Positions 8,701 to 56,881 of a stretch of DNA of 64,000 nucleotides are shown here, in pieces. The stretch is from an uncultured Gammaproteobacteria bacterium (lineage in GTDB: Bacteria; Patescibacteriota; Patescibacteriia; CAYZDG01): contig CAZHXI010000001.1 in the NCBI GenBank assembly GCA_964536515.1, positions 31,480-95,479 of the forward strand, written 5' to 3'. Both the position numbers and the translations under genes were made by a program. Numbering within the stretch: position 1 is the first letter of the stretch; every line of letters starts with the position of its first letter. A model generated the notes under the pieces. That model saw nothing but the letters and a program-made list of their open reading frames with translations. It did not search any database and was not told where the DNA came from.

Positions 8701-10415
8701 CCATTAGCCTGAGCGGCCGTACGCCCCTGCGCTACTGCACCGAGGCTGCGGGAAACGCCTACGACGACAACCGCGATGGCACGAAAGAGTACTGGCGCGA
8801 TGCGGGGGTAGACGCGAATATTGATGGCGGCGGCACCGGCGGGGAGATAAGGGCTGCGTGCAACCCAGACCCCCTGGCGGCGTCGCCCTCTAGTACAGAT
8901 GATGGCTGCACGCTGGCTGAGATGAGCTCCGGGTGGGCGGTGGAGGAGCTTTCGGGTATGCACCTCTGGAACGTTCACTGGAGCCAGGTCGCCCGCATTG
9001 TGGCAGACGGCGACTACAACGCCTGCAATAAGCACTACTCCGTAATGCCAGAGCTACGTGAGTACACGTTCGAGATGCACGAGCCAACTAGGTCCGTTAC
9101 GCGTTTCGGCTTCTGGACAGACTGGCAGAACGACAGCGAGGGTGAGACCTGGGCTTTCTTCGGCGTCGACCGCGGCAGCGGACTCATCAACTACTTCATC
9201 GGCTACGTCAACGATACGGCGGGCAGCGGCGAGGACTGCACCGTGGACTTCAAGATCGTCACCAAGGAGCAGTGCTCGGTCGTCGCCGAGGTTCGGGCAG
9301 ACGATACGCACACGGCGTGGTTCGACCGTTTCAACGGCGGCACCTACTCCGACGCTAGCTTGGTCCCCGCCAACGATGCCGCTCCCTACGGCGCCCTGCC
9401 GGCTAACGCCGCTGCAGACCTGATGGGTGCCACCTGCGATCCCGATATCCTGGCAGCTTCGGACTCGCTGAGTATCGATGAGGGCTGCGCGTTGCCCATC
9501 GGCAAGTTCGCCCTGCGGGCCAACGGCTCGCAGGCCGAGCGCGGCGGCACGCCGCTGGCCTGTCCCGTGGGCGGGTGCGCCGTGCCGCAGTGCACCCTCG
9601 ACCGAGCCAACAGCTGCGGCACCGCTGGCCAGACTACCGCCTGCTTCGATGCACTGGCTACGCCGGGAATCGGCTTCTGCTCCGGCAACCAGGTGCCCAG
9701 CGCAGCGAACGAGGGAACCAGGGTCGAGGGCGCCGTGCGCCTATCGCAGATGTTCGCCCGCAGCTACTACACCTGGACCCTAGACCCCGCCACCCACCGC
9801 TACCGCATCAACGACTGCCTTAACGACGATACGATTCAGGTAGCCATTGCCGCATCCCCCACCGGGGTAGACTCCGGCAGCGGTTGCTGGGACAGGCGCA
9901 AGCTGCTATCCACGCCAGATCCTGCCCCCACCACGCTCCGCCCGCGGGTACCCGAGATTAGCATCAACGGCAATTCCAGCGACACGCCCGAGGTGGCAGC
10001 CAGCGTGGGCGATACTGTGGAGCTGCGCTTCAGCTCGCTGCTGAACGCCGACCGCCTGCCGCTGCGCTTCATCCTGGTTGACTGGGGCGACGGCGAGCGG
10101 ACCGTTACCTCGCGGCTGAGCATCAACCACCAGCCGTCCGTGGCTAGCGGCCACCTGTTCACGCACACCTACTCTACCCGGCCGACCACGACCTGTGGGT
10201 CCGACTTCTGCGCCACCATTCGGGTGCAGATCGAGGACAACTGGGGCTTCTGCAACGGCGCACTCCCTGCGACGAGCTACAATATCAACAATGGCAACAT
10301 GAGCCTCAACCAGAGTGGCGCCGGCTGCTTCATTGGGAACGCCACCGATAGCCTCCGCTGGACCAGGGCAACCACTACCCTCCGCTTCTCCACCGCGGTA
10401 GAGGAAGACGTCTAG
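2757..10415 (+). CDS. Giant (2552 aa) Cys-rich cell-surface protein with CBM-like beta-sandwich modules and a C-terminal PKD-like domain
   Basis: N-terminal TM/signal (LILGTLVAAALLGTTLIATVSVA). More than 10 repeats of C-x(8-15)-[DN]-x-x-G-C-[QRST]-x-[FYL], e.g. DDAGCRKLL, DDVGCQAFVP, VDVGCSEFTS, RNVGCQAFMD. Three NGGFE/NGGFD-type carbohydrate-binding-like modules. VDWGDGE PKD-like motif near the C-terminus. Confidence 0.7.
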   Translation: MERRRLSGLILGTLVAAALLGTTLIATVSVARLRERAFAAVGFGGTGAILKTITQGSGAAIATPGFPVVADPGVRTQNFLSSLGDAIGSALESSGKLLVKNTLSRFLGELARGTAEWIATGSPGQMPLFETQGGYEFMAATRDAATAEFLDSLGSAYGVDVCNPELGAKLVIHYSSLPSSRLDTPRCSLKQIQENWAELLPNNQAFLQRFSAALEPDQNDLGIALTLEKKLVVERETKANAAILERLESQGLKPLKDLAGNIVTPAAAVNEQIRQTLGLSAQKELSFIGDPVADAIGIFTNTLGNRLREKWLKQGFVNIADVFNRTGSSGGLFGGAGRYSVAEPRFAALAGLELGTSGSIDVVGELSACSDPADPGFGNQCVLDPSFAQAVQQQLTVREAMERGLLRGEWAFGYLQDGSEPRYGTGYPYSAMVVMRTKRIVPVGWELAAQAAKAFGQGVTLDHVLHCYEDPAAAGDGSRPVDCQINGINPFYHLVDPNWLLKVPATYCVRRGASAELLTEEYICNQDTNGDSFVDCVNLDSNINGIAAPVDGDPSSKDEYLRVIQRAEYCADEQSCIAENADGTCRAYGYCFEEKQTFSLGDNACPSQFASCVGVTTPSGQQTAYIQDSVQTCPTGAAGCQWYSRRKSGANWSVAPTDRIYLNSEAATCSPDDAGCRKLLRFGQGTNLVPNGGFEQYDRHLPSDPNGTDNFFINGGTARGRAYTNAADVYEGQASFRLTRSGSISVLAETGSEVAGRTFTASVASKNCTAGSLSLLDGDGGAIGAPVNLQISGPDTDNGQWHTATITGTTQAPGTSLTVQVTGLNASVDSDCLLDSLALTEGSARATLAYGAGRSVHISSRATQCSQDDVGCQAFVPTSGDPTVFGRITANDYCPAQCVGYQNYSPLINTFEEREGASAPAPSNFIPSTARSCSAVDVGCSEFTSLAEVPEGGERVAYFSQVQQCVPEATPSVGTYYTWEGSDTAGYQLRVWQLLRTNISGPLAPCTNLSLDPSIQPPVCLDTAENRATCDLNAGNPDCREVFDSNATSHGVLWSRVVQATNDCQQYRRTGTDFVYNVSPRLARRCPAAANGCRQYRGATGGNTRTVLLADFETSSAAGWGGTRVALTTEALQVGGHSLLALGASGSVTLRRTEPLAMRPGHQYMLTVWVKGSDRDIPAGNVTLRGGLRRLLGALGATPASAQPGPAENLVFNAGPTPIGGEWQRLQIGPVTPTTQASTMTFDITVAIGGLRSAYFDNIQLKEVTSDTFVVQNSWETPQACDNPPGLPNGTDSNPRTEPGAMVGCSAYRVAGRQVTLRSFNRLCAERNVGCQAFMDTANSASPFAQRFNSTCSLGAPVATPTVCSSDGYQRCVVGAGEASCRYTQTSDYDPSSAAEPLVADEDQVPVLGDRVTYLVDDPAAYCSAEVAGCTQLGLPRINKQAWSGSGAAPANGIVSWQDVYKVANPDQFSRSLCSVGQLWCAAHRVSGGGTLTFRDPQGSLAGESRTCEYRTGVQIGSQLVTGWFRTGTDDGCRATSNYSLPLNGGPGYDRFVGICPAQYSGCTNYRNPQPSATGGERDNYFLRSSVDSSSCNGLVDVAGGCMLFRDPAQPALYSSQYSYPPYRLPGQAPVATSTLDSNVVLKVRRDRSCSQWYSCGSSVAVPGSPTGQRVCTSLTSCTRLNPATNQCDNPGGGSFPVGSAGFPNEFTFASPDDSTRWRNLSGYTVPGIQFTGGPGLVSRGFTPYSNMEQIGLSATVSNGGFDDAADSLASTDGVGWHSCDSGAPAVPAAQACSYVVSANRVREGRAALRFSSTVGAVTTLRHGVVAVAPNSTYAVSVQLNTVDLLAGDVALEVLDGGGTVQLRLQQGSGQGWQTLLGQFTATGSVTLRLVASADASGSAYVDDVKIEPVLQVNGEPRFVGQQCRVYPRGDAPSCRYTQADGEYRGITGYCLQPDPRDPSRCIQWWPVDVVAGQSFDVFGETISLSGRTPLRYCTEAAGNAYDDNRDGTKEYWRDAGVDANIDGGGTGGEIRAACNPDPLAASPSSTDDGCTLAEMSSGWAVEELSGMHLWNVHWSQVARIVADGDYNACNKHYSVMPELREYTFEMHEPTRSVTRFGFWTDWQNDSEGETWAFFGVDRGSGLINYFIGYVNDTAGSGEDCTVDFKIVTKEQCSVVAEVRADDTHTAWFDRFNGGTYSDASLVPANDAAPYGALPANAAADLMGATCDPDILAASDSLSIDEGCALPIGKFALRANGSQAERGGTPLACPVGGCAVPQCTLDRANSCGTAGQTTACFDALATPGIGFCSGNQVPSAANEGTRVEGAVRLSQMFARSYYTWTLDPATHRYRINDCLNDDTIQVAIAASPTGVDSGSGCWDRRKLLSTPDPAPTTLRPRVPEISINGNSSDTPEVAASVGDTVELRFSSLLNADRLPLRFILVDWGDGERTVTSRLSINHQPSVASGHLFTHTYSTRPTTTCGSDFCATIRVQIEDNWGFCNGALPATSYNINNGNMSLNQSGAGCFIGNATDSLRWTRATTTLRFSTAVEEDV

Positions 10416-10418
10416 GAT

Positions 10419-13400
10419 ATGCTTCGTCTGCCATTGAATTTCAGCTCACCTCGCTTCGCCCGAGGCGTCGCGGTTGCGATGCTGGCCCTGGTCGCTATCG
10501 TAGCTGTGCCGGTGGCGTTGCCGGGCGGGGGAGTGAGCGATTCGGCGCCGGTGCGGTCGGCGATCGGCGTAGCTACGGTGCACGCGGTTACCGATACTGA
10601 TATTCAGATGCAGGCCGAAGCCAGGGAGGCAGCGGCGAACAAGACCGATAGTGACTCGTGGTTCACCCGGGTCATCAAGGAGCTGATGTACGCCATTATC
10701 CAGTTCTTCGGCTACATGACCGGGCTGCTGTTCAAGGTGCTAGAGATGATTGCCCAGTACAACGGGTTCACCACCGAGCCGATCGTGGTGAAGGGCTGGA
10801 CCATAGTCCGGGACGTCTGCAACATGTTCTTCGTCTTCGCCATGCTGCTCATTGCCTTCGGCACCATACTGCGCATCCAGGCCTACCACTACCGCAGCCT
10901 GCTGTTCAAGGTCGTGCTGATGGCGGTGCTCATGAACCTTTCTAAGTCTATCGTCGGCGTGCTCATAGACCTTTCGCAGATCGTAATGCTTTCGTTCGTG
11001 AGCGGGTTCAAGCACATGGTGGCGGGCAGCCTGGCCCAGGCCTTTGGCGTGGATAAGATACTAAGGTTGGTACCAACTGACTCCGGCACTAACGCTGTTA
11101 CCGCTGGGCAGGTGAACGATGCTCTGGGCGCAACCGGCGGCGACGGCGTGGTTGCCAGCGCGGGTACGCTGCTGGCGTCGTTCATTCTGGCTGCGCTCAT
11201 CATGGCTCTCATCTTCATTACCGTTCTAGCCATTACGGTGCAGCTCATAGTACGTGTGATAAAGCTATGGATTCTCACCATCATGGCGCCCATCGCCTTC
11301 GCCGGAACCCTGTTCAAGGGCCTGGGCTCAATGGCCGGCAAGTGGTGGGACGAGCTGACCAAGGAGCTGGTGGCCGGCCCCACGCTGATGTTCTTCCTCT
11401 GGCTGGTGCTGGCTATTAGCTCGGCTAACAGCGGCGAGGTGTTCGGCGCCGGCAGCCATGCGGCCGGCTCGTTCAACCCGCTGAACCTGGAGGCTGCCAG
11501 CGCCGGGAACCTAGTGAACCTGTTCGTGGTAGTGGGCTTGCTGTGGGCCGGCTTGGGAGCAGCCAAGGCGGGCGGTACCGCCGCCGCAGGCGCGGTAGGC
11601 TTCGGCCTGGGCAAGCTATCGAGCATCAGCCGCGGCTCTGCTCGCCTGGCGGGGAAGGGGGCAGCGGGCGTGGGCCGCTTCGGCCAGCGCTGGGCTGCGC
11701 AGGGCCTGTCTAAGAGCGGTATCCAGGCGCGCTACGAGATGGCCAAGGAAGGCATTCGAGAGTCTACCGCTGGCAAAGCGGTGCGCTTCTTTGGCAAGGA
11801 GGCTACCGAGCAGCGTTGGGCTGCCCGTAAGGCGATACGTCGGGAGCGCATTCTGACGCACATGGATACCGCGGCGAAGTCCGCAGACCTCGCGGGCCAG
11901 CCGATTGGGTGGATTCAGTCTGCCCGCCGTAAGCGTGAGCAAAAGTGGCGCGTCGAGTCTAACGTGGCTACCGCCAAGTACATGAAGGAGCTAGACGAGC
12001 AGGGGATCAACGACAATGCCAGCATTAGGGCGGCGCTGGCTTCCAATATGAAGGACGGCAAGGTGCAGAACGTAGATAAGCAGGCGGCGCTGCTGCGCCA
12101 GCTGGCGAGCAAGGGCAAGGTTCTGGATGCTAATCGCGACATTATCGAGAACACGGCGGGTATGTCGGATGGCTCCCGTGCCGCGCTGCTCGCTGCCTTC
12201 AAGGACCACGACACCAGCGCCATTAAGAGCGACGGCAGCATCCGTTCCGACGCCGAGGTAATGGAGGAGATGGAGTCGGCCATGAAGGGCGACGCCGATC
12301 GCGGCGCCAAGAACAAGAGGGTACGCGGCATTGCTGCCAAGGTCCGTGTGGACGAGAGGGGCCAGGTTGCCAACTCGACAGCCATCGCGACCCTCCGCAA
12401 CCTGGATGAGGACTACATTGAGCCGCTCGATAAGAAGCTGAAGGACGATATTAAGGGGGCTATCCTGCTGACGATCCACAACGCCAACCAGAGTGGCGAC
12501 ACCCAGCTGCGGGATGAAATGGAGAAGAAGTACAATCAGCTGTTCGCCCAGGGAACCGACAAGCAGGGCAACGCCCTCCCCAAGCTTGAGCTAGACAAGG
12601 ATACCGGACAGGTGAAGGACGACGCCATGCGTGCCGTGCAGCAGAAGGCTGCACGCAAGCAGGAGCGTGACCAGATCAAGGAGGTCAGCATGAAGCGTGA
12701 TAGCCTGGTACCCCTAGATGAGGGCGAGAAGGCGCTGCAGAAGCTGGTAGCCGCCATTGATGGCGCTCCAAAGAAAATTGAAGAGCTAAGGACTAAACTT
12801 GCGGAGCTATCAACCATCGACACGTCAACGAAGGCGGGACGTGGTTGGCATAAGCAGGCTACCATCGACGTAGCTCGCATACAGAAGGAGCTCGTCGACG
12901 GCGCTGAAAAACAAACAAAGGATGAGAATGGAAATCGAAAACCTGAGTTTGTCTACCGTGGCAACGACGGCTCGGTGATCGATCCTGGCGTCCTAGTCAA
13001 TCGAATGCTTGGTGGTAACCTTGAGTCTAGGCTCGATGCTGTCCGTGAGGATGTAGCTTGGAGCAGGGCTCAGCCCGATGATTCTAAGCGTCTCGCGTCT
13101 GATCAATTGCAGGTAATCTCTGCTCGATTCAACCGCATTCATAAGGTGGCTCCCCCGAAGGGTCCAGCATCGGCAGGTAGCCCGTCAGGTCGAGCGACTG
13201 ATACAAGGTACCTCGCCGGAGAGTTCGTCCAGCCACGGCAGGCGGTGAGTAGCATCGCCGATCCTTTGGTCAGTAAGGCACAGGGGGCGGTGAGGCAGGC
13301 ATTCCAGCAGATCGATCAGGGCCAGCGCGTAGCGAAGCTGGAGCCGGTGCTTAAGGAGGTGCAGGGTGCGATAAAGCAGATGCTGACTATTGATAAGCTC

Positions 13401-13535
13401 GACGAGGTTCAGAAGGGTGCGCTCACCGATATAGCAAAGGAGGCTGAAGATCTGAGCGGCAAGCTCGCTACCGCATCCGAGGCGGATGTATCAGCGATTG
13501 TCACCAAGATCAGCAAGCTGAAGAACCTAGCCTAG
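10419..13535 (+). CDS. VirB6/TrbL-like polytopic membrane protein with a ~600 aa charged coiled-coil-like C-terminal extension
   Basis: Signal/TM, then 6 or more hydrophobic helices (FFVFAMLLIAFGTIL, LIMALIFITVLAITVQLIV, etc.), then a long K/E/D/A-rich hydrophilic tail. Immediately follows the giant protein (stop, 3 nt, ATG). Confidence 0.55.
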   Translation: MLRLPLNFSSPRFARGVAVAMLALVAIVAVPVALPGGGVSDSAPVRSAIGVATVHAVTDTDIQMQAEAREAAANKTDSDSWFTRVIKELMYAIIQFFGYMTGLLFKVLEMIAQYNGFTTEPIVVKGWTIVRDVCNMFFVFAMLLIAFGTILRIQAYHYRSLLFKVVLMAVLMNLSKSIVGVLIDLSQIVMLSFVSGFKHMVAGSLAQAFGVDKILRLVPTDSGTNAVTAGQVNDALGATGGDGVVASAGTLLASFILAALIMALIFITVLAITVQLIVRVIKLWILTIMAPIAFAGTLFKGLGSMAGKWWDELTKELVAGPTLMFFLWLVLAISSANSGEVFGAGSHAAGSFNPLNLEAASAGNLVNLFVVVGLLWAGLGAAKAGGTAAAGAVGFGLGKLSSISRGSARLAGKGAAGVGRFGQRWAAQGLSKSGIQARYEMAKEGIRESTAGKAVRFFGKEATEQRWAARKAIRRERILTHMDTAAKSADLAGQPIGWIQSARRKREQKWRVESNVATAKYMKELDEQGINDNASIRAALASNMKDGKVQNVDKQAALLRQLASKGKVLDANRDIIENTAGMSDGSRAALLAAFKDHDTSAIKSDGSIRSDAEVMEEMESAMKGDADRGAKNKRVRGIAAKVRVDERGQVANSTAIATLRNLDEDYIEPLDKKLKDDIKGAILLTIHNANQSGDTQLRDEMEKKYNQLFAQGTDKQGNALPKLELDKDTGQVKDDAMRAVQQKAARKQERDQIKEVSMKRDSLVPLDEGEKALQKLVAAIDGAPKKIEELRTKLAELSTIDTSTKAGRGWHKQATIDVARIQKELVDGAEKQTKDENGNRKPEFVYRGNDGSVIDPGVLVNRMLGGNLESRLDAVREDVAWSRAQPDDSKRLASDQLQVISARFNRIHKVAPPKGPASAGSPSGRATDTRYLAGEFVQPRQAVSSIADPLVSKAQGAVRQAFQQIDQGQRVAKLEPVLKEVQGAIKQMLTIDKLDEVQKGALTDIAKEAEDLSGKLATASEADVSAIVTKISKLKNLA

Positions 13536-17830: not shown

Positions 17831-17879
17831 TCCGCCGTTGGCGTACCCGCCGCGCGGCCGCTTGCCCCGTTCATAGAAC

Positions 17880-17909
17880 GGACGATTCGTGGTATAATTT
17901 TTTCGTTCT
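17880..17909 (+). promoter_or_regulatory. Extended -10 promoter (GACGATTCGTGGTATAATTTTTT), near-leaderless start of the second secretion-locus operon
   Basis: TGgTATAAT at 17890-17899; ATG at 17910 is 10 nt downstream. 19/22 identity with the motif at 2171-2192. Confidence 0.6.
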
Positions 17910-19009: not shown

Positions 19010-19483
19010 ATGGCCCAGCTGCAGCACTTCGTCGTCCCCCAGTTCATAGATATCGAGAGCAAGATTCTGGGGCCCATTACCACCCGGCAGTTCCTGTGGG
19101 TGCTGGGCGCCGGGCTCATTTTCTTCATCGCCCTGCGCACGCTGCCGGTGCCGGCCTTCATTGCCGTAGCGGTGCTGGATGTAGCCGTGTTCGGCAGCTT
19201 CGCCTTCGTGAAGGTGAACGGCCAGCTCTTCCATAACTTCCTGGTCAGCGCCATTGCCTTCGGGCGGCGGCCGAGGCTGTACCTATGGACCGCCGGGGTA
19301 GAGGATGACGGAGTTTCCGTTGCCGCCGTCAGCCCGGCGGAGGCGGTGGGCCAGCGTCCGCTGATTCCCGCCGGCAGGCTGAACGAGCTGGCGCTGCTGG
19401 TAGACACCGGCGGCACCTACCAGGCCGTGACCGCATTCAAGGAAATACCGCCTATCCCCGAAGACCATGTCCCCCAAGCCTAA
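19010..19483 (+). CDS. Small two-TM membrane protein, PrgI/VirB3-like position upstream of VirB4
   Basis: 157 aa; hydrophobic hairpin FLWVLGAGLIFFIALRTLPVPAFIAVAVLDVAVFGSFAFV. Gene-order analogy to Gram-positive T4SS (PrgI then PrgJ). Confidence 0.45.
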   Translation: MAQLQHFVVPQFIDIESKILGPITTRQFLWVLGAGLIFFIALRTLPVPAFIAVAVLDVAVFGSFAFVKVNGQLFHNFLVSAIAFGRRPRLYLWTAGVEDDGVSVAAVSPAEAVGQRPLIPAGRLNELALLVDTGGTYQAVTAFKEIPPIPEDHVPQA

Positions 19484-20141
19484 GCTAAAGAGGGCTCCTG
19501 CTGCCGCCGCGCTGCCGTTCTCGTACCTGCGCGAGGGCAGCGTCATCATGCGAGACGGCAGCCTGCGCGCGGTGCTGCTGGCGTCGTCCATAAACTTCTA
19601 CCTGAAGTCTGAGACCGAGCAGAACGCTATCGTCAGCGGCTACATCGGCTTCCTCAACACGCTCAGCTTCCCGCTGCAGATCGTCATTCAGTCGCGCCGG
19701 CTGAACATAGACGGCTACCTGGCGCAGCTCGAGACTCTGGAGCGGCAGCAGACCAACGAGCTGCTGCGGCTGCAGACGGCAGACTACCGGCAGTTCGTTA
19801 AGGAGCTTCTGGAGCTGGAGGATATTATGACCAAGCGCTTCTACGTGGTCGTGCCCTACGACCCGGCGGGGGATAAGACGCGCGGCTTCATCAGCCGGCT
19901 GACATCTGCCTTCTCGGCGCCGGCTGCGGTGGCGCTGCGCGAGGAGAAGTTCCGTCGGGCCTCGGAGGAGCTATCCAAGCGGGTGGCGCTGGTGCAGAGC
20001 GGCCTGGGCCAGATCGGCATAACCACGGCGGCGCTCGACACCCCCAGCTTGATAGAGCTGTACTACCGAACCTACAACCAGGAGGTAGCCGACGTGCAGC
20101 CGCTGTCGGCCGTCGGTAAGCTGCAGGTAGATGCTTCGTAG
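19467..20141 (+). CDS. Hypothetical protein, possibly the N-terminal domain of a split VirB4-like ATPase
   Basis: 224 aa; overlaps the upstream gene by 17 nt and the downstream VirB4-like gene by 11 nt out of frame. Combined 224+637 aa approximates full-length VirB4 size. Confidence 0.45.
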   Translation: MSPKPKLKRAPAAAALPFSYLREGSVIMRDGSLRAVLLASSINFYLKSETEQNAIVSGYIGFLNTLSFPLQIVIQSRRLNIDGYLAQLETLERQQTNELLRLQTADYRQFVKELLELEDIMTKRFYVVVPYDPAGDKTRGFISRLTSAFSAPAAVALREEKFRRASEELSKRVALVQSGLGQIGITTAALDTPSLIELYYRTYNQEVADVQPLSAVGKLQVDAS

Positions 20142-22044
20142 TATGGATGACGCCCCACGCTTCACCCCCGCAGACCTCAGCCGGTCCCCTCGTCCTTCTG
20201 ACTCGGGGCAGGCTCCCTCGGTTCCGGCTCCCGAGCGTCGCCAGCAGCAGGCTGCCCAGCTGGAGGCCGAGCAGGTCTACCGCCGCGGCGTGGTCTCGGT
20301 GCGCGAGCTGCTGGCGCCGCCCAGCTTCAAGGTTGACTCCAGCTTCGTGCAGCTCGGCGGGGTCTTCGCCCGGACCCTGTTCGTCAGCGCCTACCCCCGC
20401 TACCTGACGGTGGGCTGGTTCGCCAGCGTCATCAACTACAGCGCCACGTTGGATATCGCCATCTACTTCTACCCGCTCGCCGCCGACGTGGTTCTCAAGA
20501 AGATGCGCAAGAAGGTGGGCGAGCTGGAGGCGCAGCTGTCCGAAGACAGCGAGCACGGCGCCCCGCGCGACCCCGCCCGTGAGGCAGCGGTCCGCGACCT
20601 CGAGCAGCTCCGCGACGACCTGACGCAGGGAACCGAGCGGTTCTTCCAGGTCGGGCTGTACGTTACGCTCTACGCGCCGTCGGCGGCCGAGCTCAACCGG
20701 CTAACCGAGCGTATAGAGGGCGTCATCGGCAGCCGCCTGGTCTACACCAAGCGAGCCTTCTTCCAGGCCGAGCAGGGCTTCAATAGCACGCTGCCGCTCG
20801 CCGACGACGAGCTGGGGCTGCCGCTGAACCTGAACACCTCGCCGGCAGCCGCCAGCTTCCCGTTCACCTCGGCTGACCTCACCGGCGACAGCGGCATCAT
20901 GTACGGCATCAACCGGCACAACAATAGCCTCATCATCTTCGACCGGTTCTCGCTGCAGAACGCCAACATGGTGGTGTTCGCCACGGCCGGCAGCGGCAAG
21001 AGCTACGCGGTGAAGCTAGAGATCCTGCGCAGCCTGATGCTGGGCACCGACGTCATCGTCATCGACCCCGAGATGGAGTACCGCCACCTGTGCGAGGCGG
21101 TGGGCGGCACGTACATCAACGTATCGCTTACGGCCGACACCAAGATCAACCCGTTCGACCTGCCGGCGGCGGCCCCGGGCGGCGAGACCAAGGCCTCCGA
21201 CGTCATCCTGACCGCCGTCATCGCCATCAAGGGCCTGCTGCGGCTGATGGTGGGCGGCCTGACCCCGCAGGAGGATTCGCTGCTCGACCGCGCCATCCTC
21301 GAGACGTACGCCAAGAACGACATTACCCCCAGCGCCGACCTGACCAAGGTTACCGCGCCGCTCATGTCCGACCTGGTGCAGGTGCTGGGCGGCCTCACCG
21401 GCGGCGAGAGCATTGTGCAGCGGCTGGTGAAGTACACCTCGGGCACCTTCTCGGGCCTGTTCAATGCCCCCACCAACGTGCGCCTCTCCAACCAGCTGGT
21501 CGTCTTCTCGGTCCGCGACCTGCAGGACGAGCTGCGGCCGCTCGCCATATACAACATTATCCTGTTCATTTGGAGCGTCGTGCGCAGCGAGCTGAAGAAG
21601 CGGCTGCTTGTAATCGACGAGGCCTGGTGGCTTATGCAGTATGAGGACTCAGCTCGGTTCATCTACGCCCTGGTGAAGCGCTGCCGCAAGTACTACCTGG
21701 GCATCACCACCATTACCCAGGACGTGCAGGACTTCCTCAAGTCGCCCTACGGCCCCGCCATCATCAATAACTCAGCCCTGGCGCTGCTGATGCGCCAGCA
21801 CCCCAACGCCATTAGCATGGTGCAGCAGTCCTTTTTGCTCACCGAGGGCGAGAAGTACCTGCTGCTCGAGGCGAACGTGGGCGAGGGTATATTCTTCGCC
21901 GGCAGCCGCCACGCCGCCGTTAAGGTCATGGCCTCCTACGGCGAGGACCAGCTGATTACCACCGATCCGCGCCAGCTGCTGGAGATTGAGCACGCCAAGC
22001 AGGCCTTCGCCCAGGCGCAGGATGCGGCGAAGCCTAACAGTTGA
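20131..22044 (+). CDS. VirB4/TrbE/PrgJ-like type IV secretion ATPase
   Basis: Walker A VVFATAGSGKSY, then IDPEMEY, Walker B LLVIDEAWWLM, then TQDVQDF, the typical VirB4/TraC family motif order. Low-complexity ~80 aa N-terminus. Confidence 0.8.
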   Translation: MLRSMDDAPRFTPADLSRSPRPSDSGQAPSVPAPERRQQQAAQLEAEQVYRRGVVSVRELLAPPSFKVDSSFVQLGGVFARTLFVSAYPRYLTVGWFASVINYSATLDIAIYFYPLAADVVLKKMRKKVGELEAQLSEDSEHGAPRDPAREAAVRDLEQLRDDLTQGTERFFQVGLYVTLYAPSAAELNRLTERIEGVIGSRLVYTKRAFFQAEQGFNSTLPLADDELGLPLNLNTSPAAASFPFTSADLTGDSGIMYGINRHNNSLIIFDRFSLQNANMVVFATAGSGKSYAVKLEILRSLMLGTDVIVIDPEMEYRHLCEAVGGTYINVSLTADTKINPFDLPAAAPGGETKASDVILTAVIAIKGLLRLMVGGLTPQEDSLLDRAILETYAKNDITPSADLTKVTAPLMSDLVQVLGGLTGGESIVQRLVKYTSGTFSGLFNAPTNVRLSNQLVVFSVRDLQDELRPLAIYNIILFIWSVVRSELKKRLLVIDEAWWLMQYEDSARFIYALVKRCRKYYLGITTITQDVQDFLKSPYGPAIINNSALALLMRQHPNAISMVQQSFLLTEGEKYLLLEANVGEGIFFAGSRHAAVKVMASYGEDQLITTDPRQLLEIEHAKQAFAQAQDAAKPNS

Positions 22045-22056
22045 TAGACTGCAGCT

Positions 22057-22620
22057 ATGGACCGCCGCCGCATGGTGATCATCTCCGGAGCAGCCCTGCT
22101 CGCCATCGTCGCCGTGGTGCTGTGGCTGGTGCTCCGGGGTAGCCCGACCACGCCTCCGCCGGCTGGAGTAACGCCCACGACCACGCCAGAGGATACCTCC
22201 AATCTGCCGCCGCCGGTCAGCACGCCGACGACCCCCGAGCCCGACCGGACCGGGGCGGTGGTAGCGGCACGCGTCTGGGCCGAGCGGTTCGCCAGCTGGT
22301 CTAACGAGGATGGCTTCACCAACCTGCAGCAGCTGGGTAGCCAGTCGACCGCCCAGGTTCAGTCTTTCCTGGCCACCTACCGCCAGCAGCTGCAGCAGCG
22401 GTACCCGGTGGCCGATGGCTACCGCGGCGTAACCGGCCGGGCGCTCTCGCCCAAGCTAGACGCCTTCGATGCAGGCGCCGGCACGGCCCAGGTGAGCGTG
22501 GCCATGCAGCTGGCCGAGAGCACGTCTACATCGCCCACGGTGTACAACCGTACGCTGGACTTACGCCTGCTGCGCAGCGGCGAGGCGTGGCTGGTGGACT
22601 ACGTGAAGTGGGAGGAGTAA
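22057..22620 (+). CDS. Membrane-anchored protein (N-terminal TM, Pro/Thr linker, ~120 aa globular domain); VirB8-like role is speculative
   Basis: MVIISGAALLAIVAVVLWLVL TM, then PTTPPPAGVTPTTTPEDTS linker. Confidence 0.4.
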   Translation: MDRRRMVIISGAALLAIVAVVLWLVLRGSPTTPPPAGVTPTTTPEDTSNLPPPVSTPTTPEPDRTGAVVAARVWAERFASWSNEDGFTNLQQLGSQSTAQVQSFLATYRQQLQQRYPVADGYRGVTGRALSPKLDAFDAGAGTAQVSVAMQLAESTSTSPTVYNRTLDLRLLRSGEAWLVDYVKWEE

Positions 22621-23084
22621 TGCCGACCGAGGAAGAGAAGTTAGTAGCGGATGCCGAACGGCAGCAACGTCGGCAGTCGCAGGCTGCGGCCGAGAGCGAG
22701 AAGCCCAGCGGGGCGGGCGAGGCGATCGGGGGCATAGTCGCCAAGGTTTCGCCCACGGCAGCGGCGCTCCAGTTCGCCTGGAGGTTCTACCTGCCCTCGT
22801 TCACCCTCACGTCCATCTACATTGTGCTGCACATCTTGCTGCGGTACGTATTCCAGTTCAAACTCTTCTGTCGAGCAGATGAGGGCTCTCCCCTGGGGGG
22901 AGTCGGCAAGTCGGCGGCCTCAGCGTTCGGCGCGGGTGGCGGGACGAGCGAGAAGGCTTGGATTGCCCTCGGCCTTGCCTCGGGTCTGCCGCTGGCGTTC
23001 GCCTGCGTTCTCCTGTACGCCATTGCCTACGCCATGGAGCACCCGCTATCTACGCTGTACGCGTTGCTGACCGGCAACCTATAG
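22620..23084 (+). CDS. Small polytopic membrane protein
   Basis: Start ATG overlaps the upstream stop (TAATG); 2-3 hydrophobic helices (FTLTSIYIVLHILLRYVF; IALGLASGLPLAFACVLLYAIAYA). Confidence 0.4.
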   Translation: MPTEEEKLVADAERQQRRQSQAAAESEKPSGAGEAIGGIVAKVSPTAAALQFAWRFYLPSFTLTSIYIVLHILLRYVFQFKLFCRADEGSPLGGVGKSAASAFGAGGGTSEKAWIALGLASGLPLAFACVLLYAIAYAMEHPLSTLYALLTGNL

Positions 23085-23120
23085 CGAGACGGCGCTCGGG
23101 CTTTACGCTACACTAATTCC

Positions 23121-24299
23121 ATGTCAAACCTGCGGCGGATTCTGCTCTCACTGGCGTTGCTGGCCGCAGCTGGAGCCATGGGCTTCGGCCTCTACTGGCT
23201 CTTCTTCCGCGTGCCTACGCCCTCGCCGGTAACGCCGCCCCCCGGCGCCGGCGGAGGACAGTTCCCGCCGTCGGGGCAGGGCGGCGGAGGCACGGCCGCT
23301 ACCGGCACCGGCCGGTTCCCCATTACCCCGGCCGACGGCGTCGGGCCGTACGTTACAGCTAGCACCACGGATGGCGTAGCCGGCGCCGTAGCTGCCCCGG
23401 ACGGTAGCATCCGCTACTACGATTCCATCCGCAAGCAATTCGTTAACCTAGCTGCCGACGGCAGCATTCAGCCGCTCTCGCCCGACCGATTCTTCGGCGT
23501 CTCCGACGTTACCTGGGCGCCCGGCAATTCTCGCGCGGTCGTGGCCTACCCGGACGGCAGCAAGGTGCTGTACGATTTCGCCACCCAGCAGCAGTCCACC
23601 CTGCCGCGTGCCATGCAGGACGTCTCCTTTGACCCCTCCGGCACCAAGCTAGCTAGCCTGTACCTCGGCTCGACCAAGGAGGAGCAGTGGCTGGTAACCT
23701 CCAACGCCGACGGCAGCCAGATTCAGCTGGTGGAGCCGGTCGGCGGAAAGGTGAACAACTTCAAGCCCAGCTGGTCGCCGAGCGGCCAGATTGTGGGGCT
23801 GTTCGCCGAGGCGGTAGACGGCGAGCGTCAGGAGGTGGTGCCCATCGGCCGTAACGGCGAGAACTTCCGCTCATTCGTGGCGCCCGGCCGCGGATTCACC
23901 GCCGAGTGGTCGCCCTCGGGCGAGCGTATCCTCTACAGCGTGTTCAACTCGGCTAGCCAGGGCCGGCCCGAGCTGTACCTAGCCGACGGCCGCGCCGATA
24001 CCTTCGGCGCGAACAGCACCAGCCTGGGGCTATCTACCTCTGCCGACTGGTGCTCATTCTCGGGAGGCAGCGTGTACTGCGCGGCGCTCGACACACCGCC
24101 GGCCCTGCTGGGTTCGTACCCCGAGCTGGCGCAGGGGCAGGCGTCGTCGCTGTGGCGAATAGACCTAGCCAGCGGCCAGCGCACCCGGGTCGCCCAGCTG
24201 CCGCAGGGCTTTACCCCCAGCCGGGTAACCGCCGACGCCGGCGGCGTGTACGTAGCCGACCAGTCTACCGGACGTCTCTATGCTGCGCCGACGCGGTAG
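23121..24299 (+). CDS. TolB-like (PD40/WD40-like) beta-propeller protein with N-terminal membrane anchor
   Basis: N-terminal TM, then repeated YPDGSKVLYDF / SWSPSGQIVGLF / EWSPSGERILYSV PD40-type repeats. Confidence 0.5.
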   Translation: MSNLRRILLSLALLAAAGAMGFGLYWLFFRVPTPSPVTPPPGAGGGQFPPSGQGGGGTAATGTGRFPITPADGVGPYVTASTTDGVAGAVAAPDGSIRYYDSIRKQFVNLAADGSIQPLSPDRFFGVSDVTWAPGNSRAVVAYPDGSKVLYDFATQQQSTLPRAMQDVSFDPSGTKLASLYLGSTKEEQWLVTSNADGSQIQLVEPVGGKVNNFKPSWSPSGQIVGLFAEAVDGERQEVVPIGRNGENFRSFVAPGRGFTAEWSPSGERILYSVFNSASQGRPELYLADGRADTFGANSTSLGLSTSADWCSFSGGSVYCAALDTPPALLGSYPELAQGQASSLWRIDLASGQRTRVAQLPQGFTPSRVTADAGGVYVADQSTGRLYAAPTR

Positions 24300-25365
24300 C
24301 CTGCTCTTGCTCGCCGCGCTCGCCACGCTGGCGGTAGCCGTGGGCACATCCGCCGTGGCAACGGCGCAGACTTCGGGCCCGAGCAACAGCAGCGGCCAGG
24401 TTGAATTCTGGCCCAGCATCTACTTCCCGGGGCTGGAGCAGATCGAGGGCGTTAGGCAGGATACTGCGACGGGGCGGTACTCCGTAACCGTTACGCCAAC
24501 TACCCTCGGCGAGTACATCGTTGCGCTGTACAAGTTCTTCACCGGGGCAACGGCCATCGTGGCCATGTTCATGGTTACCTACGGAGGGCTGCTGTGGCTC
24601 CTCGCCGGCGGCAACCAGGGCAGCATCAGCCACGCCAAGGAGGTCATTACCGGGGCTATCGCCGGCATGGTCATTGCGCTGCTGTCGTACGCGCTGCTGG
24701 CTACCATCAGCCGGGGGCTGGTGGAGTTCAAGAGCCTAGACACCAGGCTGGAGGCGAGGCTGGGGCAGGATAGTACCTCGTCCGGCCCAGACCTGGGCTG
24801 CGCGAATCCGCAGTTCCAGGACATCATCACCACGGACGCCATAGACGCTACCAGCGGCGGCGCCTCGTTTACCTGCGCCAACATCGGCGCAGTCGAGTCG
24901 CTGGTGGTTGCGGCGCAGAATACCTTCGATCAGACGAATAGACGGGTGCTGCTGACCAGCGCCTACAGGTCTCGTACCAGGCAGGAGCAGCTCTACGATG
25001 AGAACACGCGCAATAGCGCCTGCCGTCGAGACCACCCCGCAGACTGGAAGACCCAGTGCGGCTCGGGCGACGCCACCCCGCCCACCTGTAACCCGTGGCT
25101 ATCTCGGGGCTGCCCCCACACCACCGGCTACGCCCTAGACGTCCGCTGCTCTGGGCAGCCTGAGTACGGCGAGTGCCAGCTCGCCCTGGAGCAGAGCATG
25201 ATCGAGCAGGGTTTCTGTAGGCTGGCGAATGAGACCTGGCACTTCGAGAAGCCTCCGGTCTCATCCAACTGCGTCGGCGGCCCCGTTGACGGCACCGGCT
25301 ACCGCAGCGGCTGCCCCACTTGCTGCAATAGTTTGACCAACGAGCACTGCGAGGGAAGAGAGTGA
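24280..25365 (+). CDS. Fusion of a VirB2/TrbC-pilin-like N-terminal module with a C-terminal M15 (VanY-like) zinc D,D-peptidase (peptidoglycan hydrolase)
   Basis: Signal peptide, then VAMFMVTYGGLLWLLAGGNQGSISHAKEVITGAIAGMVIALLSYALL (TrbC/VirB2-like). C-terminal SAYRSRTRQEQLY…CPHTTGYALDV…ETWHFE (S-x-H-x(n)-D … W-H-[FY]-E M15 motifs). Confidence 0.55.
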   Translation: MLRRRGSLLLLAALATLAVAVGTSAVATAQTSGPSNSSGQVEFWPSIYFPGLEQIEGVRQDTATGRYSVTVTPTTLGEYIVALYKFFTGATAIVAMFMVTYGGLLWLLAGGNQGSISHAKEVITGAIAGMVIALLSYALLATISRGLVEFKSLDTRLEARLGQDSTSSGPDLGCANPQFQDIITTDAIDATSGGASFTCANIGAVESLVVAAQNTFDQTNRRVLLTSAYRSRTRQEQLYDENTRNSACRRDHPADWKTQCGSGDATPPTCNPWLSRGCPHTTGYALDVRCSGQPEYGECQLALEQSMIEQGFCRLANETWHFEKPPVSSNCVGGPVDGTGYRSGCPTCCNSLTNEHCEGRE

Positions 25366-25421
25366 AGCCGGTAGCGCTCTGGAATAAAGAAGAGCAGCGG
25401 CCGTTGGGCCGCTGCTGTTCG

Positions 25422-25868
25422 TTACTTCTGCTTCGTTACTACACGCTGGGGTACAGCATTGCGCTGCATATTCCAGGCGCTGGTCATGCTCGTATCGACG
25501 AAGATTTTTGAGTGGGGACCCAGGTGGTCACGGTGCACTAGGCACCTGTTGCATGCGTCCCTGTCGGTTGCCACAACGGCAAAGTCGTGGTCTTCTCCAT
25601 CGTCAGATGAGACACGGACCACGCCAATGCACTGTAGCGTGCTGCCGTATTGCTCGCAGAGTTCGGCGAGTTCACGTGGCGACTGGGGCGAGGGGTGCGT
25701 AATGTTCACGGTTAGCCTGCTGTCGCGGACCACGTGCTCTCGCAGCTCTCCCCTCGGGGTTGGCAGCGCCTCATTGATGCGAACCTGACTGACGCCCGCC
25801 CCAAATAGGCGAGTTCGTACGAAGCTTTGCAGCCCCTCTCCTGGGGCCACTGGAATGAAAGAATCCAT
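25422..25868 (-). CDS. Hypothetical protein in a lower-GC island
   Basis: Start at internal ATG (MDSFIPVAPG…); no recognisable motifs. Region 25380-26190 is visibly lower GC, with an AT-rich upstream tract at 25860-25990. Confidence 0.35.
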   Translation of the reverse strand: MDSFIPVAPGEGLQSFVRTRLFGAGVSQVRINEALPTPRGELREHVVRDSRLTVNITHPSPQSPRELAELCEQYGSTLQCIGVVRVSSDDGEDHDFAVVATDRDACNRCLVHRDHLGPHSKIFVDTSMTSAWNMQRNAVPQRVVTKQK

Positions 25869-26193
25869 TTTTTCTGCTCGGTTTTTTGTTTTTCGGTTTT
25901 GAAAATCGAGATAGTTTCCGCCACCTTTCCGTTGGCGGTTTAGTTTCGGGTTATATATTTGAAGTCTTGTAGGGGTTAATTTTGGGTCGGCCGGGGCGCC
26001 GGGCAGCGGAACCGAAAACCGCTGCCCGGTGCTGGCGGCGCACGGAAAACTCGATGGCGTTTGTAGCTTTCGCGGCGAACACGGCACAGCGTGCTCCCGA
26101 CCGACCCTTAGTGAGTTGAACTCAGATCATTCCCTTAGGAATTCAATGAGCTTACGCCAGGATAGTGCTACTAAGCTTAAGAAATGTCAAGCC

Positions 26194-28293
26194 TCATTCG
26201 AGGTGGCTGGTCGTCTCTAGCCGCTGCAATGCTGTGGCCAGCAGGGGGCTACGGGCTAGGCTGGGGTCATTCGCCAGCAGGGCCTCGGCTTCGGCCGCTG
26301 CGGCGCGGACCAGCTCCTGGTCTGCCAGGCTGGCAACCTTCAGCTGGGCCATCTGCCCGGACTGCTCGGTGCCCAGCAGCTGCCCTGGCCCGCGGATCTG
26401 CAGGTCTGCCTCGGCGAGGGCGAAGCCGTCGTCGTAGCGTTCCAGCAGCAGCAGGCGCTGCAGCGCATCTGGCCTTCCCGTTTCGCACAGTAGGTAGCAG
26501 CTGCTGGCGTGCTGCCCGCGTCCAATGCGTCCGCGTAGCTGGTGGAGCTGGGCTAGGCCGAACCGCTCGGCGCCCTCAATCGCCACGAGCGTCGCATTGG
26601 GTACGTCCACGCCTACCTCGATGACCGTGGTCGTTACCAGTACGTCCAATTCTCCGGCGGCGAACTGCCGCATGGCCTCGGACTTCTGCTTGGGGCGTAG
26701 CTGGCCGTGCAGCAGGCCCAGCCGTAGGCCGGATAGGGGGCCGTCGCGTAGCCGCTCGAACTCCGTGGTCGCCGCGCGCACGCCCATGGTGTCTGTCTCT
26801 GCCACCCTGGGGCAGACGATGAAGGCTTGGCGCCCAGCCGCCACCTCGCGACGGATGGCGGCGTACAGGTCGTCTCGTCGGTGGGGCGGCAGCACGTGCG
26901 TGGCGATCGGCGTGCGGCCCGCCGGCTTCTGCCGCAGCGTGGAGCACTCCAGCTGGCCGTACAGCAGCAGGGCGAGGGTGCGGGGGATGGGGGTGGCCGT
27001 CATGGTCAGCAGGTGGGGTGTTAGCCCATCCGCGTGCTGGCGCAGCGCAGCCCGCTGGTTAACGCCGAAGCGGTGCTGCTCGTCTACCACCACCAGCGCC
27101 AGCCTATCCAGCGGTACGCCCTCGCCTAGTAGCGCGTGGGTGCCGACGGCGATGGAGACCTTGCCCTGCTTCAGCCGCTTAGCTACGTCCGCCTTGGTCC
27201 CGACGTAGCTCTGCCCGCCCCGCTCAGCGGGGTCTCCGTCCCACCACTCACGCCGCGTCGCCGTCAGCAGGCATACGCCAACGTTCTGTCCAGCTAGCAC
27301 CTTGGTCAGCGTAGCCCAGTGCTGCTCGGCCAGGACCGCGGTGGGGGCCAGCAGGCAGGCCTGGAATCCAGCCTTGGCTGCAGCCAGGCAGGCGATTGCT
27401 GCCACGGCTGTCTTGCCCGAACCCACGTCGCCCTGCAGCAGCCGCTGCATCGCCTGGGGCTCGGCCATGTCCTTGAGTATCTGCCACGCGGCGGACCGCT
27501 GGTCGTCCGTAAGCTTGAAGGGTAGGCCGGCTACCATCTGCTGGACGGCGGGTATATCTGCATCTACGGAGGGGGCTGTGGCGCCACGGCTAGCCGCCAG
27601 CGCCATGCGGCCGCGTAGCGACAGCAGCAGCAGCTCGTCGAACGCCAGGCGGCGGCGCGCCGTTTCCAGCTGCTCGGCGCTATCGGGGAAGTGGTACCAG
27701 CGGACGGCGTCCCCCCGGGGGGCGAGCTCGCGCTGCTTTCGGATGCTCTCGGGCAGGGGGTCTGGCAGGTTGGCGGCGAGGGCAATTGCCTCGCTCACCA
27801 GGAACCGCAGCTGCTTCTGCGACGCTCCGTCCGTTGCCGGGTACACGGGAACCAGCCGGCTGGTGTGCGTGGGCGGCCGGTCGTCCGTCAGCCGTTCGTA
27901 CGTAGGGCTGGCCATGGAGAGCTGCAGCGTATTCCCGTCCACCCTTCCCGCCAGCGACACCTTCGTCCCGGGCGTAAGGATCTTGGCGACGTACGGCTGG
28001 TGGAACCAGGCTACCTTGAGCTGCCCCGTGTCGTCCGCTACCACGGCTTCGGTTACCACCATGCGTCGCCGGAACGAGCGGCGGCTGGCGATGAGCTCCA
28101 CCCGGCCGTGGACCGTAGCCGTTTCACCGGGGACGAGCTCGGCTATTGGCACCACCCGGGTGAGGTCGTCGTGGCGTACCGGCAGGTGGTTCAGCAGGTC
28201 GGCCGCGGTGCGTAGACCCAGCCTAGCCAGGGCGGCTCCGGCAGACTTTCCTATGCGGCCCATGCCGACGATTGGGGTGTCTAGGGTTAGCAT
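26194..28293 (-). CDS. recG: ATP-dependent DNA helicase RecG
   Basis: 699 aa. N-terminal wedge domain; helicase motifs DVGSGKT (Walker A), VVDEQHRFG (DEQH box), and C-terminal RGRIGRG. Confidence 0.9.
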   Translation of the reverse strand: MLTLDTPIVGMGRIGKSAGAALARLGLRTAADLLNHLPVRHDDLTRVVPIAELVPGETATVHGRVELIASRRSFRRRMVVTEAVVADDTGQLKVAWFHQPYVAKILTPGTKVSLAGRVDGNTLQLSMASPTYERLTDDRPPTHTSRLVPVYPATDGASQKQLRFLVSEAIALAANLPDPLPESIRKQRELAPRGDAVRWYHFPDSAEQLETARRRLAFDELLLLSLRGRMALAASRGATAPSVDADIPAVQQMVAGLPFKLTDDQRSAAWQILKDMAEPQAMQRLLQGDVGSGKTAVAAIACLAAAKAGFQACLLAPTAVLAEQHWATLTKVLAGQNVGVCLLTATRREWWDGDPAERGGQSYVGTKADVAKRLKQGKVSIAVGTHALLGEGVPLDRLALVVVDEQHRFGVNQRAALRQHADGLTPHLLTMTATPIPRTLALLLYGQLECSTLRQKPAGRTPIATHVLPPHRRDDLYAAIRREVAAGRQAFIVCPRVAETDTMGVRAATTEFERLRDGPLSGLRLGLLHGQLRPKQKSEAMRQFAAGELDVLVTTTVIEVGVDVPNATLVAIEGAERFGLAQLHQLRGRIGRGQHASSCYLLCETGRPDALQRLLLLERYDDGFALAEADLQIRGPGQLLGTEQSGQMAQLKVASLADQELVRAAAAEAEALLANDPSLARSPLLATALQRLETTSHLE

Positions 28294-28337
28294 GGGATGG
28301 GGGCTCGATTCTTGTTATAGTACGGGTATAAATCGTC

Positions 28338-28952
28338 GTGTCCAAGCTTAACCGGCAACCTATGTACGAACCCAAGCCGCTGCCCCACGGTACCCAGCTC
28401 GAGGGCATATCCGAGAAGACCCATACCATCCACCACGGCAAGCTGTACACCGGCTACGTGAACAAGAGGAACGAGATCGTGGATAAGCTGAAGGCGGTAG
28501 ACCTGGGCGGCGCCAACGCTACCTACAGCGAGCTGCGTAGCCTGAAGGCAGAGGAGACGTTCGCCGCCAACGGCGTGGTGCTGCACGAGGTGTTCTTCGA
28601 CGTCGTGGGCGAGCCGGGCGGCGAGGCGCCGCAGCTGCAGGCCAGGCTAGCTGCAGACTTCGGGTCGCTAGAGAGCTGGCAGCAGCTGTTCGCCGCCTGC
28701 GGCATGGCTGCGCGCGGCTGGGTGGTGCTGGCCTGGGATACGAACGACGGCAAGCTGGCGGTGTACACCGGCGACGCCCACAACCAGGGCGGCGTCTGGG
28801 GCTGCATCCCCATCGTTACGTTGGACGTGTACGAGCACGCCTACTTCATAGACTTTGGCAGCGACCGCAAGGCCTACCTGGAGGCGTTCTGGAAGAACTT
28901 TAATTGGGCTGCCGCCGAGCGTAGGTTCCTGGCGGCGACTAACGCAGCGTAA
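28338..28952 (+). CDS. sodA: Fe/Mn superoxide dismutase
   Basis: HHGKLYTGYV, WGCIPIVTLDVYEHAYFIDF (the D-x-W-E-H-A-Y-Y family motif) and metal-ligand His positions. Confidence 0.85.
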   Translation: MSKLNRQPMYEPKPLPHGTQLEGISEKTHTIHHGKLYTGYVNKRNEIVDKLKAVDLGGANATYSELRSLKAEETFAANGVVLHEVFFDVVGEPGGEAPQLQARLAADFGSLESWQQLFAACGMAARGWVVLAWDTNDGKLAVYTGDAHNQGGVWGCIPIVTLDVYEHAYFIDFGSDRKAYLEAFWKNFNWAAAERRFLAATNAA

Positions 28953-56758: not shown

Positions 56759-56781
56759 ATCAATCCGAGATTGGAATTGTA

Positions 56782-56811
56782 CGTAGAGACGAGGCGCGCC
56801 TCGTCTCTACG
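56782..56811. repeat. Palindromic repeat family copy 5 (CGTAGAGACGAGGCG|CGCCTCGTCTCTACG)
   Basis: 30-nt perfect palindrome downstream of yqeY; acts as terminator and/or insulator before the giant adhesin promoter. Confidence 0.7.
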
Positions 56812-56860
56812 GCGTTTGGCATCGCCACGCACCGCCGCCGTGCGTAGCCCTGCGGAGGGT

Positions 56861-56881
56861 ATAGGTGGTATCATTGACGTC
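56861..56881 (+). promoter_or_regulatory. Extended -10 promoter AGGTGGTATCATTGACGTC, leaderless start of the giant adhesin gene
   Basis: TGgTATCAT at 56866-56874; ATGATG at 56882 is 7 nt downstream. Confidence 0.5.

Follow-up and report, generated by a model that had tools for sequence, protein, structure and literature searches.

Among type IV secretion system (T4SS) components detected in Patescibacteria (the Candidate Phyla Radiation, CPR), the most abundant is TrsD, with 2,272 homologues counted, of which 1,664 adjoin virB4 (Quiñonero-Coronel et al. 2025, PMC12102498). The same study described TrsD as typical of the pGO1 subclass of MPF_FATA systems, without an assigned function, and as remotely homologous to the N-terminus of VirB4. 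It also listed a TrsD homologue as essential in Candidatus Southlakia epibionticum ML1, and reported that T4SS components of Patescibacteria were essential for epibiotic growth in one strain tested. Elsewhere the TrsD/VirB4 homology is cited to Guglielmini et al. 2014 (PMC4027160), from whose main text TrsD is absent. For single-chain VirB4, the R388 system showed that the N-terminal domain of TrwK comprises residues 15-400, that VirB3 wraps around this domain, and that the domain mediates VirB4-VirB4 dimerisation (PMC9259494). Here we analysed a 64,000-nucleotide (nt) stretch (hereafter the window; contig CAZHXI010000001.1, positions 31,480 to 95,479) from an uncultured bacterium of the Patescibacteriota, on which a VirB4-type ATPase is divided between two consecutive open reading frames (ORFs), ORF1 and ORF2. 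We find it highly probable that this locus is a genuine, conserved two-gene VirB4 within a chromosomal Patescibacteria T4SS operon, with the order prgI (virB3-like), trsD-like, virB4.

ORF1 encodes 224 amino acids (aa) at 19467..20141 on the + strand, beginning with ATG and ending with a TAG stop at 20139-20141, and the longest ORF behind it, at 20131..22044, lies in a different (+1) frame. An earlier note on this stretch, made from the sequence without database searches, had described two ORFs in different frames that overlap by 11 nt; the ORF list bears out the two ORFs, their coordinates and their frames, but the overlap depends on choosing the longest possible ORF. A second in-frame ATG of ORF2 is located at 20143, and with this start the junction (20139..20145, + strand) reads TAG-t-ATG, that is, the ORF1 stop, a 1-nt spacer and the conserved ATPase start. 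In the related locus L091, whose ORF1 is 96% identical, ACG is found where the window has ATG 20131. ATG 20143 and the peptide M-[DAP]-D-[AS]-P-[RQ]-FTPADL are kept both in L091 and in L001, the locus from the closest GTDB species. In independent gene calls for L090, a second assembly of the same sequence, and for L091, the ATPase likewise begins 1 nt past the ORF1 stop. Since ATG 20131 is not conserved and ATG 20143 is, we regard the 11-nt overlap as an artefact that comes from choosing the longest ORF; the true start of ORF2 is likely ATG 20143, which would give a product of 633 aa (20143..22044, + strand; 637 aa from ATG 20131) and a 1-nt spacer.

A frameshift pseudogene, or a sequencing or assembly error, could also give rise to such an arrangement if an indel near 20131-20141 had broken a single virB4. 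In favour of this, the ORFs lie side by side in different frames, and together they amount to ~857 aa, close to the 804-823 aa of single-chain VirB4 proteins. A check for homopolymer errors near these positions had been suggested; no run of four or more identical bases is present at the junction, however, and the sole such run in 20081-20160 is CCCC at 20153, inside ORF2. L090, an independent Logan assembly of SRR12487045, matched the window at 100% identity along 2742 nt that span the junction. Because this assembly is identical and the junction holds no homopolymer, the split is not an assembly or read artefact.

We assigned ORF2 to the VirB4 family of T4SS ATPases from several sequence matches. 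It scored above the cutoff of the NCBIfam model conju_CD1110 (E 6.9e-98; 328.8 bits against a 325-bit cutoff) and also matched Pfam P-loop_TraG, AAA_10 and DUF87. Residues 248-610 matched the VirB4 C-terminal domain of PDB entry 4AG5 (E 2.2e-42), and residues 279-577 matched residues 446-735 of TrwK. The Walker A motif (GSGKS, 20989-21003) and the Walker B motif (LLVIDEAW, 21604-21627) are both intact, which argues against a pseudogene. The match to conju_CD1110 joins ORF2 residues 38-592 to model positions 169-729 of 752, and a BLAST alignment with the 804-aa VirB4 of Cutibacterium begins only at Cutibacterium residue 254. Given these two starting points, ORF2 is assigned as an N-terminally short form, without about 170-250 residues from the start of single-chain VirB4. 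The ORF opens with a poorly conserved tail rich in P, R, S, D, A and Q, which by composition covers ~36 aa (20143..20250, + strand), rather than the ~80 aa of low complexity first reported, and conserved sequence resumes at AAQLEAEQ (residue 37). In the 77 Patescibacteria loci introduced below, tblastn homology of ORF2 begins at median residue 29 in the 637-aa numbering.

The region that ORF2 lacks appears to be supplied by ORF1. The earlier note had found no other obvious identity for the 224-aa ORF, which does not hold: the identical protein P0001 and all of its best 120 homologues carry Pfam PF26593 'TraC-like' as a precomputed database annotation, and we obtained weak matches to the NCBIfam model NF041427 TrsD/TraD (E 4.6e-4, 20 bits against a 200-bit cutoff) and to positions 112-233 of the 894-position NCBIfam model VirB4_plasma (E 1.4e-5). 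ORF2 matched positions 292-884 of the same VirB4_plasma model, colinear with the ORF1 match. An ORF1 profile aligned end to end with TrsD of pSK41 by hhalign (80% probability, E 1.4e-5, ~20% identity). The clearest relation was to a natural single-chain protein, WP_166398659 of Rubrobacter: residues 10-200 of the ORF1 profile aligned to its residues 119-315 (hhalign 95.6%, E 1.3e-8), and ORF2 residues 61-637 to its residues 379-992 (E 2e-55). The unaligned segment between them, residues 316-378, would correspond to the ORF1 tail plus the low-complexity head of ORF2. Because this segment separates the ORF1-like and ORF2-like parts, the ORF2 tail can be read as the counterpart of the inter-domain linker of the fused protein. 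In a fold search, the predicted fold of ORF1 matched TrwK, in keeping with the fold of the solved VirB4 N-terminal domain.

Colinearity with the Rubrobacter fusion and with VirB4_plasma, together with the fold match, leads us to assign ORF1 to the N-terminal part of VirB4. From sequence comparison and the predicted structure, we designate it a TrsD/'TraC-like' protein that stands, on a chain of its own, for the initial ~200 residues of the VirB4 N-terminal domain; ORF2 is correspondingly assigned the second half of that domain plus the ATPase domain. The break between the ORFs thus cuts through the N-terminal domain of VirB4 and does not coincide with its border to the ATPase domain. The initial proposal that VirB4 is divided between the two ORFs, with the 224-aa ORF providing the N-terminal region, is supported by the colinearity and the fold.

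We further investigated whether the split is shared by related genomes. At E <= 1e-3 the database held 4,383 relatives of ORF1, and the best 120 of these were all stand-alone proteins of 162-243 aa, mostly 220-240 aa, from Patescibacteria/CPR bins. Twenty-three diverse members aligned with a mean column identity of 60%, 40 invariant columns and a shared C-terminal end (...KLQVE). We then scored the junctions by script in 80 Patescibacteria loci, sampled as one genome per species. In 77 of the 80, a stop codon (TAA in 49 loci, TAG in 17, TGA in 11) closes the ORF1 homologue, whose length is 219-239 aa (median 227), and a VirB4 homologue follows directly. The ATPase gene stands in frame 0, +1 or +2 relative to the ORF1 homologue in 27, 27 and 23 loci, respectively. 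For 76 of the 77 loci we scored the first ATG in the ATPase frame, which lies between -20 and +509 nt from the ORF1 stop, with 8 overlaps, 38 offsets of 0-20 nt, 17 of 21-100 nt and 13 above 100 nt. Two of the three exceptions are contig ends. The third and sole evaluable one (L048; CAZMOB010000004.1, 3962-4642) has a TrsD homologue followed abruptly by GC-rich unrelated sequence, with no VirB4 homologue within 4 kb downstream, and may represent a chimeric contig or an insertion.

These junctions bear on the broken-gene explanation and on a further one, programmed +1 ribosomal frameshifting, by which ORF1 and ORF2 would be fused into one VirB4 of ~860 aa. Such a mechanism would suit the window, where the longest ORFs overlap and stand in a +1 frame relation. 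Against it, we detected no slippery or shifty-stop motif at the junction, the upstream ATG and with it the overlap are already lost at 96% identity, and the frames are random over the 77 species. In L001 (89% identity), moreover, both genes occupy one frame, and between them lie a stop and a 60-nt spacer that holds a further in-frame stop. As for a broken gene, the boundary is found at the same protein position in 77 species, in all three frames and with gaps of up to hundreds of nucleotides; both halves are strongly conserved, and an uninterrupted ORF across the junction was found in none of the 77. The random frames, the variable spacing and the conservation of both products together exclude a pseudogene or sequencing error, to which we give next to no credence, and programmed frameshifting, which has scarcely any chance of being correct. 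Of the three explanations first offered for the pair, only the two-gene arrangement, tight and possibly coupled in translation, was retained. The earlier note would have taken its reading as refuted if the 224-aa ORF bore no likeness to any VirB4 N-terminal region and was a gene conserved separately in relatives; half of this applies, since the gene is conserved separately but nonetheless resembles the VirB4 N-terminal region.

What is observed is two conserved genes in one tightly packed cluster, and a plausible sequence of events can be outlined for a two-gene VirB4. The prgI, trsD-like and virB4 genes would be transcribed together, and ORF1 and ORF2 would be translated separately, back to back. 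This would be compatible with termination-reinitiation coupling, which is possible because 46 of the 76 scored loci have a spacing of at most 20 nt. The TrsD-like and ATPase chains might then come together non-covalently as a VirB4-like unit. By analogy with R388, the TrsD-like chain would form the surface that binds VirB3 and makes the VirB4-VirB4 contacts, and in this way could dock or tether the ATPase hexamer onto PrgI at the membrane. In a bolder variant, which we consider unlikely, the stoichiometry of the detached TrsD would differ from that of the ATPase, or TrsD would exchange dynamically, and it would serve as a regulatory or assembly adaptor and not as a mere piece of the enzyme. 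TrsD might, for example, be present only on a 'central' VirB4 ring that touches PrgI/VirB3. Such an adaptor, if real, would give TrsD a defined mechanistic role in the T4SSs of monoderms and CPR.

Several observations weigh against the two-gene VirB4 as we describe it. A local copy of Pfam gave no hit for ORF1 even at E <= 10; it gave none for pSK41 TrsD or for the N-terminus of Cutibacterium VirB4 either. The structural model of ORF1, built with AlphaFold2 (AF2), is of moderate confidence (predicted local distance difference test 75.5, predicted template modelling score 0.62). The fold-search tables give no matched TrwK residue range, so the placement of ORF1 in the N-terminal part rests on sequence colinearity. 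Against the CD1110-type VirB4 of Cutibacterium, hhalign returned 10.6% (E 0.003) over residues 38-112, at the correct N-terminal position; the ORF1 profile gave no meaningful hhalign match to IncC TraC and only chance-level matches to PDB sequences (E >= 0.23). ATG 20143 has no evident strong Shine-Dalgarno sequence in front of it. Finally, the association of the chains, the translational coupling and the docking on VirB3 are all steps that we infer, the last by analogy.

The marginal similarity to canonical single-chain VirB4 N-termini would also be expected if ORF1 were an independent T4SS accessory that travels with virB4, its N-terminal likeness being convergent or coincidental, and if the short VirB4 worked without an N-terminal subdomain. 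That TrsD has been described without an assigned function (PMC12102498) fits such an accessory as well. In opposition to this, ORF1 and ORF2 together are colinear with a natural fusion and with the VirB4_plasma model, ORF2 begins exactly where the ORF1-like part of single-chain proteins stops, and the gene is obligately placed between prgI and virB4. We therefore consider an independent accessory improbable and favour a VirB4 encoded by two genes.

The pair lies in a tightly packed cluster, presumed to be an operon. The window is chromosomal and has a GC content of 64.7%. Its genes include those for RecG, topoisomerase I, Mfd and a 2-hydroxyacid dehydrogenase, consistent with the chromosomal T4SSs of Patescibacteria. 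Directly upstream of ORF1, a gene at 19010..19483 (+ strand) encodes a predicted small membrane protein of 157 aa of the PrgI family (VirB3-like; Pfam PF12666 PrgI, E 4.3e-9). Its last 17 nt overlap the beginning of ORF1, and the same gene with the same overlap was called in L090 and L091. Downstream of ORF2, four tightly packed ORFs of 187, 165, 392 and 361 aa (22057..25365, + strand) make up the rest of the presumed T4SS operon. A promoter-like site (TTCATA-17-TGnTATAAT, 10/12, a consensus match only) is located at 17870..17898 on the + strand, just 5' of the first gene of the cluster (17910). A consensus scan detected no promoter-like or terminator-like site at the ORF1/ORF2 junction. Within the cluster the sole terminator-like site on the + strand, at 19104 in prgI, has a weak 5-bp stem, and the total of such sites was not above the count in shuffled sequence.

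At the end of the cluster, the product of the 361-aa ORF (24280..25365, + strand) gave a weak T4SS_pilin match at residues 75-136 and a weak match at residues 214-294 to VanY, a D-Ala-D-Ala carboxypeptidase family, both under the Pfam gathering score. Judging from these matches, the protein may join a pilin-like membrane anchor to a cell-wall hydrolase and could have a VirB1-like role. A strong terminator-like hairpin at 25393-25416 (- strand; 10 bp, 8 G-C pairs) sits between the end of the T4SS cluster (25365, + strand) and a convergent gene on the - strand (25422..26087), and may be a bidirectional terminator that closes the T4SS operon. An antisense ORF of 221 aa across the ORF1/ORF2 junction (19891..20556) was treated as a by-product of the high GC content.

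Large ORFs are also present elsewhere in the window. A few kilobases 5' of the T4SS cluster, two giant adjacent ORFs at 2757-10415 (+ strand, 2552 aa) and 10419-13535 (+ strand, 1038 aa) matched no Pfam family at E <= 1e-3; their products may be large CPR surface or host-interaction proteins. The 1700-aa ORF at 56771-61873 (+ strand) has fn3, Ig-like, Cep192_D4-like and DUF1573-type repeats, and its product is likely a large cell-surface protein.

The split is not confined to the ultra-small CPR bacteria, and many plasmids of Gram-positives have this layout as well. A tblastn search with ORF1 against plasmids returned 38 records, and we inspected a subset of these loci. In all but one of the inspected non-CPR loci, a 'hypothetical protein' of 190-370 aa is followed by an ATPase of 600-850 aa annotated as DUF87, VirB4 or TraC, usually with PrgI before it. 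The PrgI-TrsD-VirB4 triad was seen on pSK41, in Pontibacillus, where the pair shows an 11-nt overlap too, and in C. difficile BI1, C. perfringens, B. thuringiensis, Thermoanaerobacterium and Miltoncostaea. Sulfobacillus and Halobacterium carry the split pair with no PrgI annotated upstream. On the Halobacterium hubeiense plasmid pSTJ001 (L084, 3566-7236), an ORF1-like protein of 369 aa is encoded directly before an 853-aa protein with an annotated TraM-recognition domain, and because of this pair the split layout reaches haloarchaea; the pair adjoins a type I-B CRISPR-Cas locus. The split is thus kept across Patescibacteria, Bacillota, Actinomycetota and haloarchaeal plasmids.

Among the inspected non-CPR loci, the fused form was found in Rubrobacter only. 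WP_166398659 of Rubrobacter marinus, a 1344-aa 'ATP-binding protein' on plasmid NZ_CP045122.1 (L083, 3593-7627), has the same module order as the window; it differs in that the modules are covalently joined and that a P/A-rich C-terminal tail of ~350 aa is added. Its residues 32-93 gave a weak PrgI match (E 8e-4), and the protein may therefore be a natural PrgI-TrsD-VirB4 triple fusion, comparable to the VirB3-VirB4 fusions known in some conjugative systems. The Rubrobacter protein shows that the modules can exist fused or separate, and as a triple fusion it would link all three functionally.

For annotation, these results mean that the pair should be neither flagged as a pseudogene nor merged, that ORF1 should be named a TrsD-like or VirB4 N-terminal-domain protein, and that the start of ORF2 belongs at 20143. 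From colinearity, predicted fold and the natural fusion it becomes explicit that TrsD is the first half of the N-terminal domain of VirB4 in detached form, which offers a testable clue to what this protein, described without a function, may do. With regard to biology, the locus adds nothing beyond one more example of a Patescibacteria T4SS.

Compared with single-chain VirB4 proteins, such as TrwK of R388, the CD1110-family VirB4 of Cutibacterium pTZC1 (804 aa) and TraC of F and IncC, the window encodes the same N-terminal domain and RecA-like ATPase domain with Walker A and B motifs, but in two polypeptides instead of one. The pGO1/pSK41 systems (TrsD/TraD plus TrsE/TraE, pGO1 subclass of MPF_FATA) share the gene order of the window, with a small membrane protein, a TrsD of ~225 aa and an ATPase of ~640-670 aa. 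In pSK41, trsD (25886-26569, 227 aa) is followed by a DUF87 VirB4-type ATPase gene (26584-28602, 672 aa, TraE). The pSK41 system resides on a plasmid and is conjugative, and it includes a relaxase and a coupling protein, whereas the system in the window is chromosomal in a CPR genome, and neither a relaxase nor VirD4 was identified among the window ORFs scanned. The Patescibacteria T4SS of Quiñonero-Coronel et al., including the essential cluster of Candidatus Southlakia epibionticum ML1, is likewise chromosomal, with PrgI/VirB3, TrsD, VirB4 and a pilin-like gene nearby. The two-gene layout was already described there in 2025, and the locus in the window is one more instance of it, ordinary for the lineage. 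We see no substantive difference between the two systems, except that the evidence from colinearity, fold and fusion makes a gene-fission reading more explicit here.

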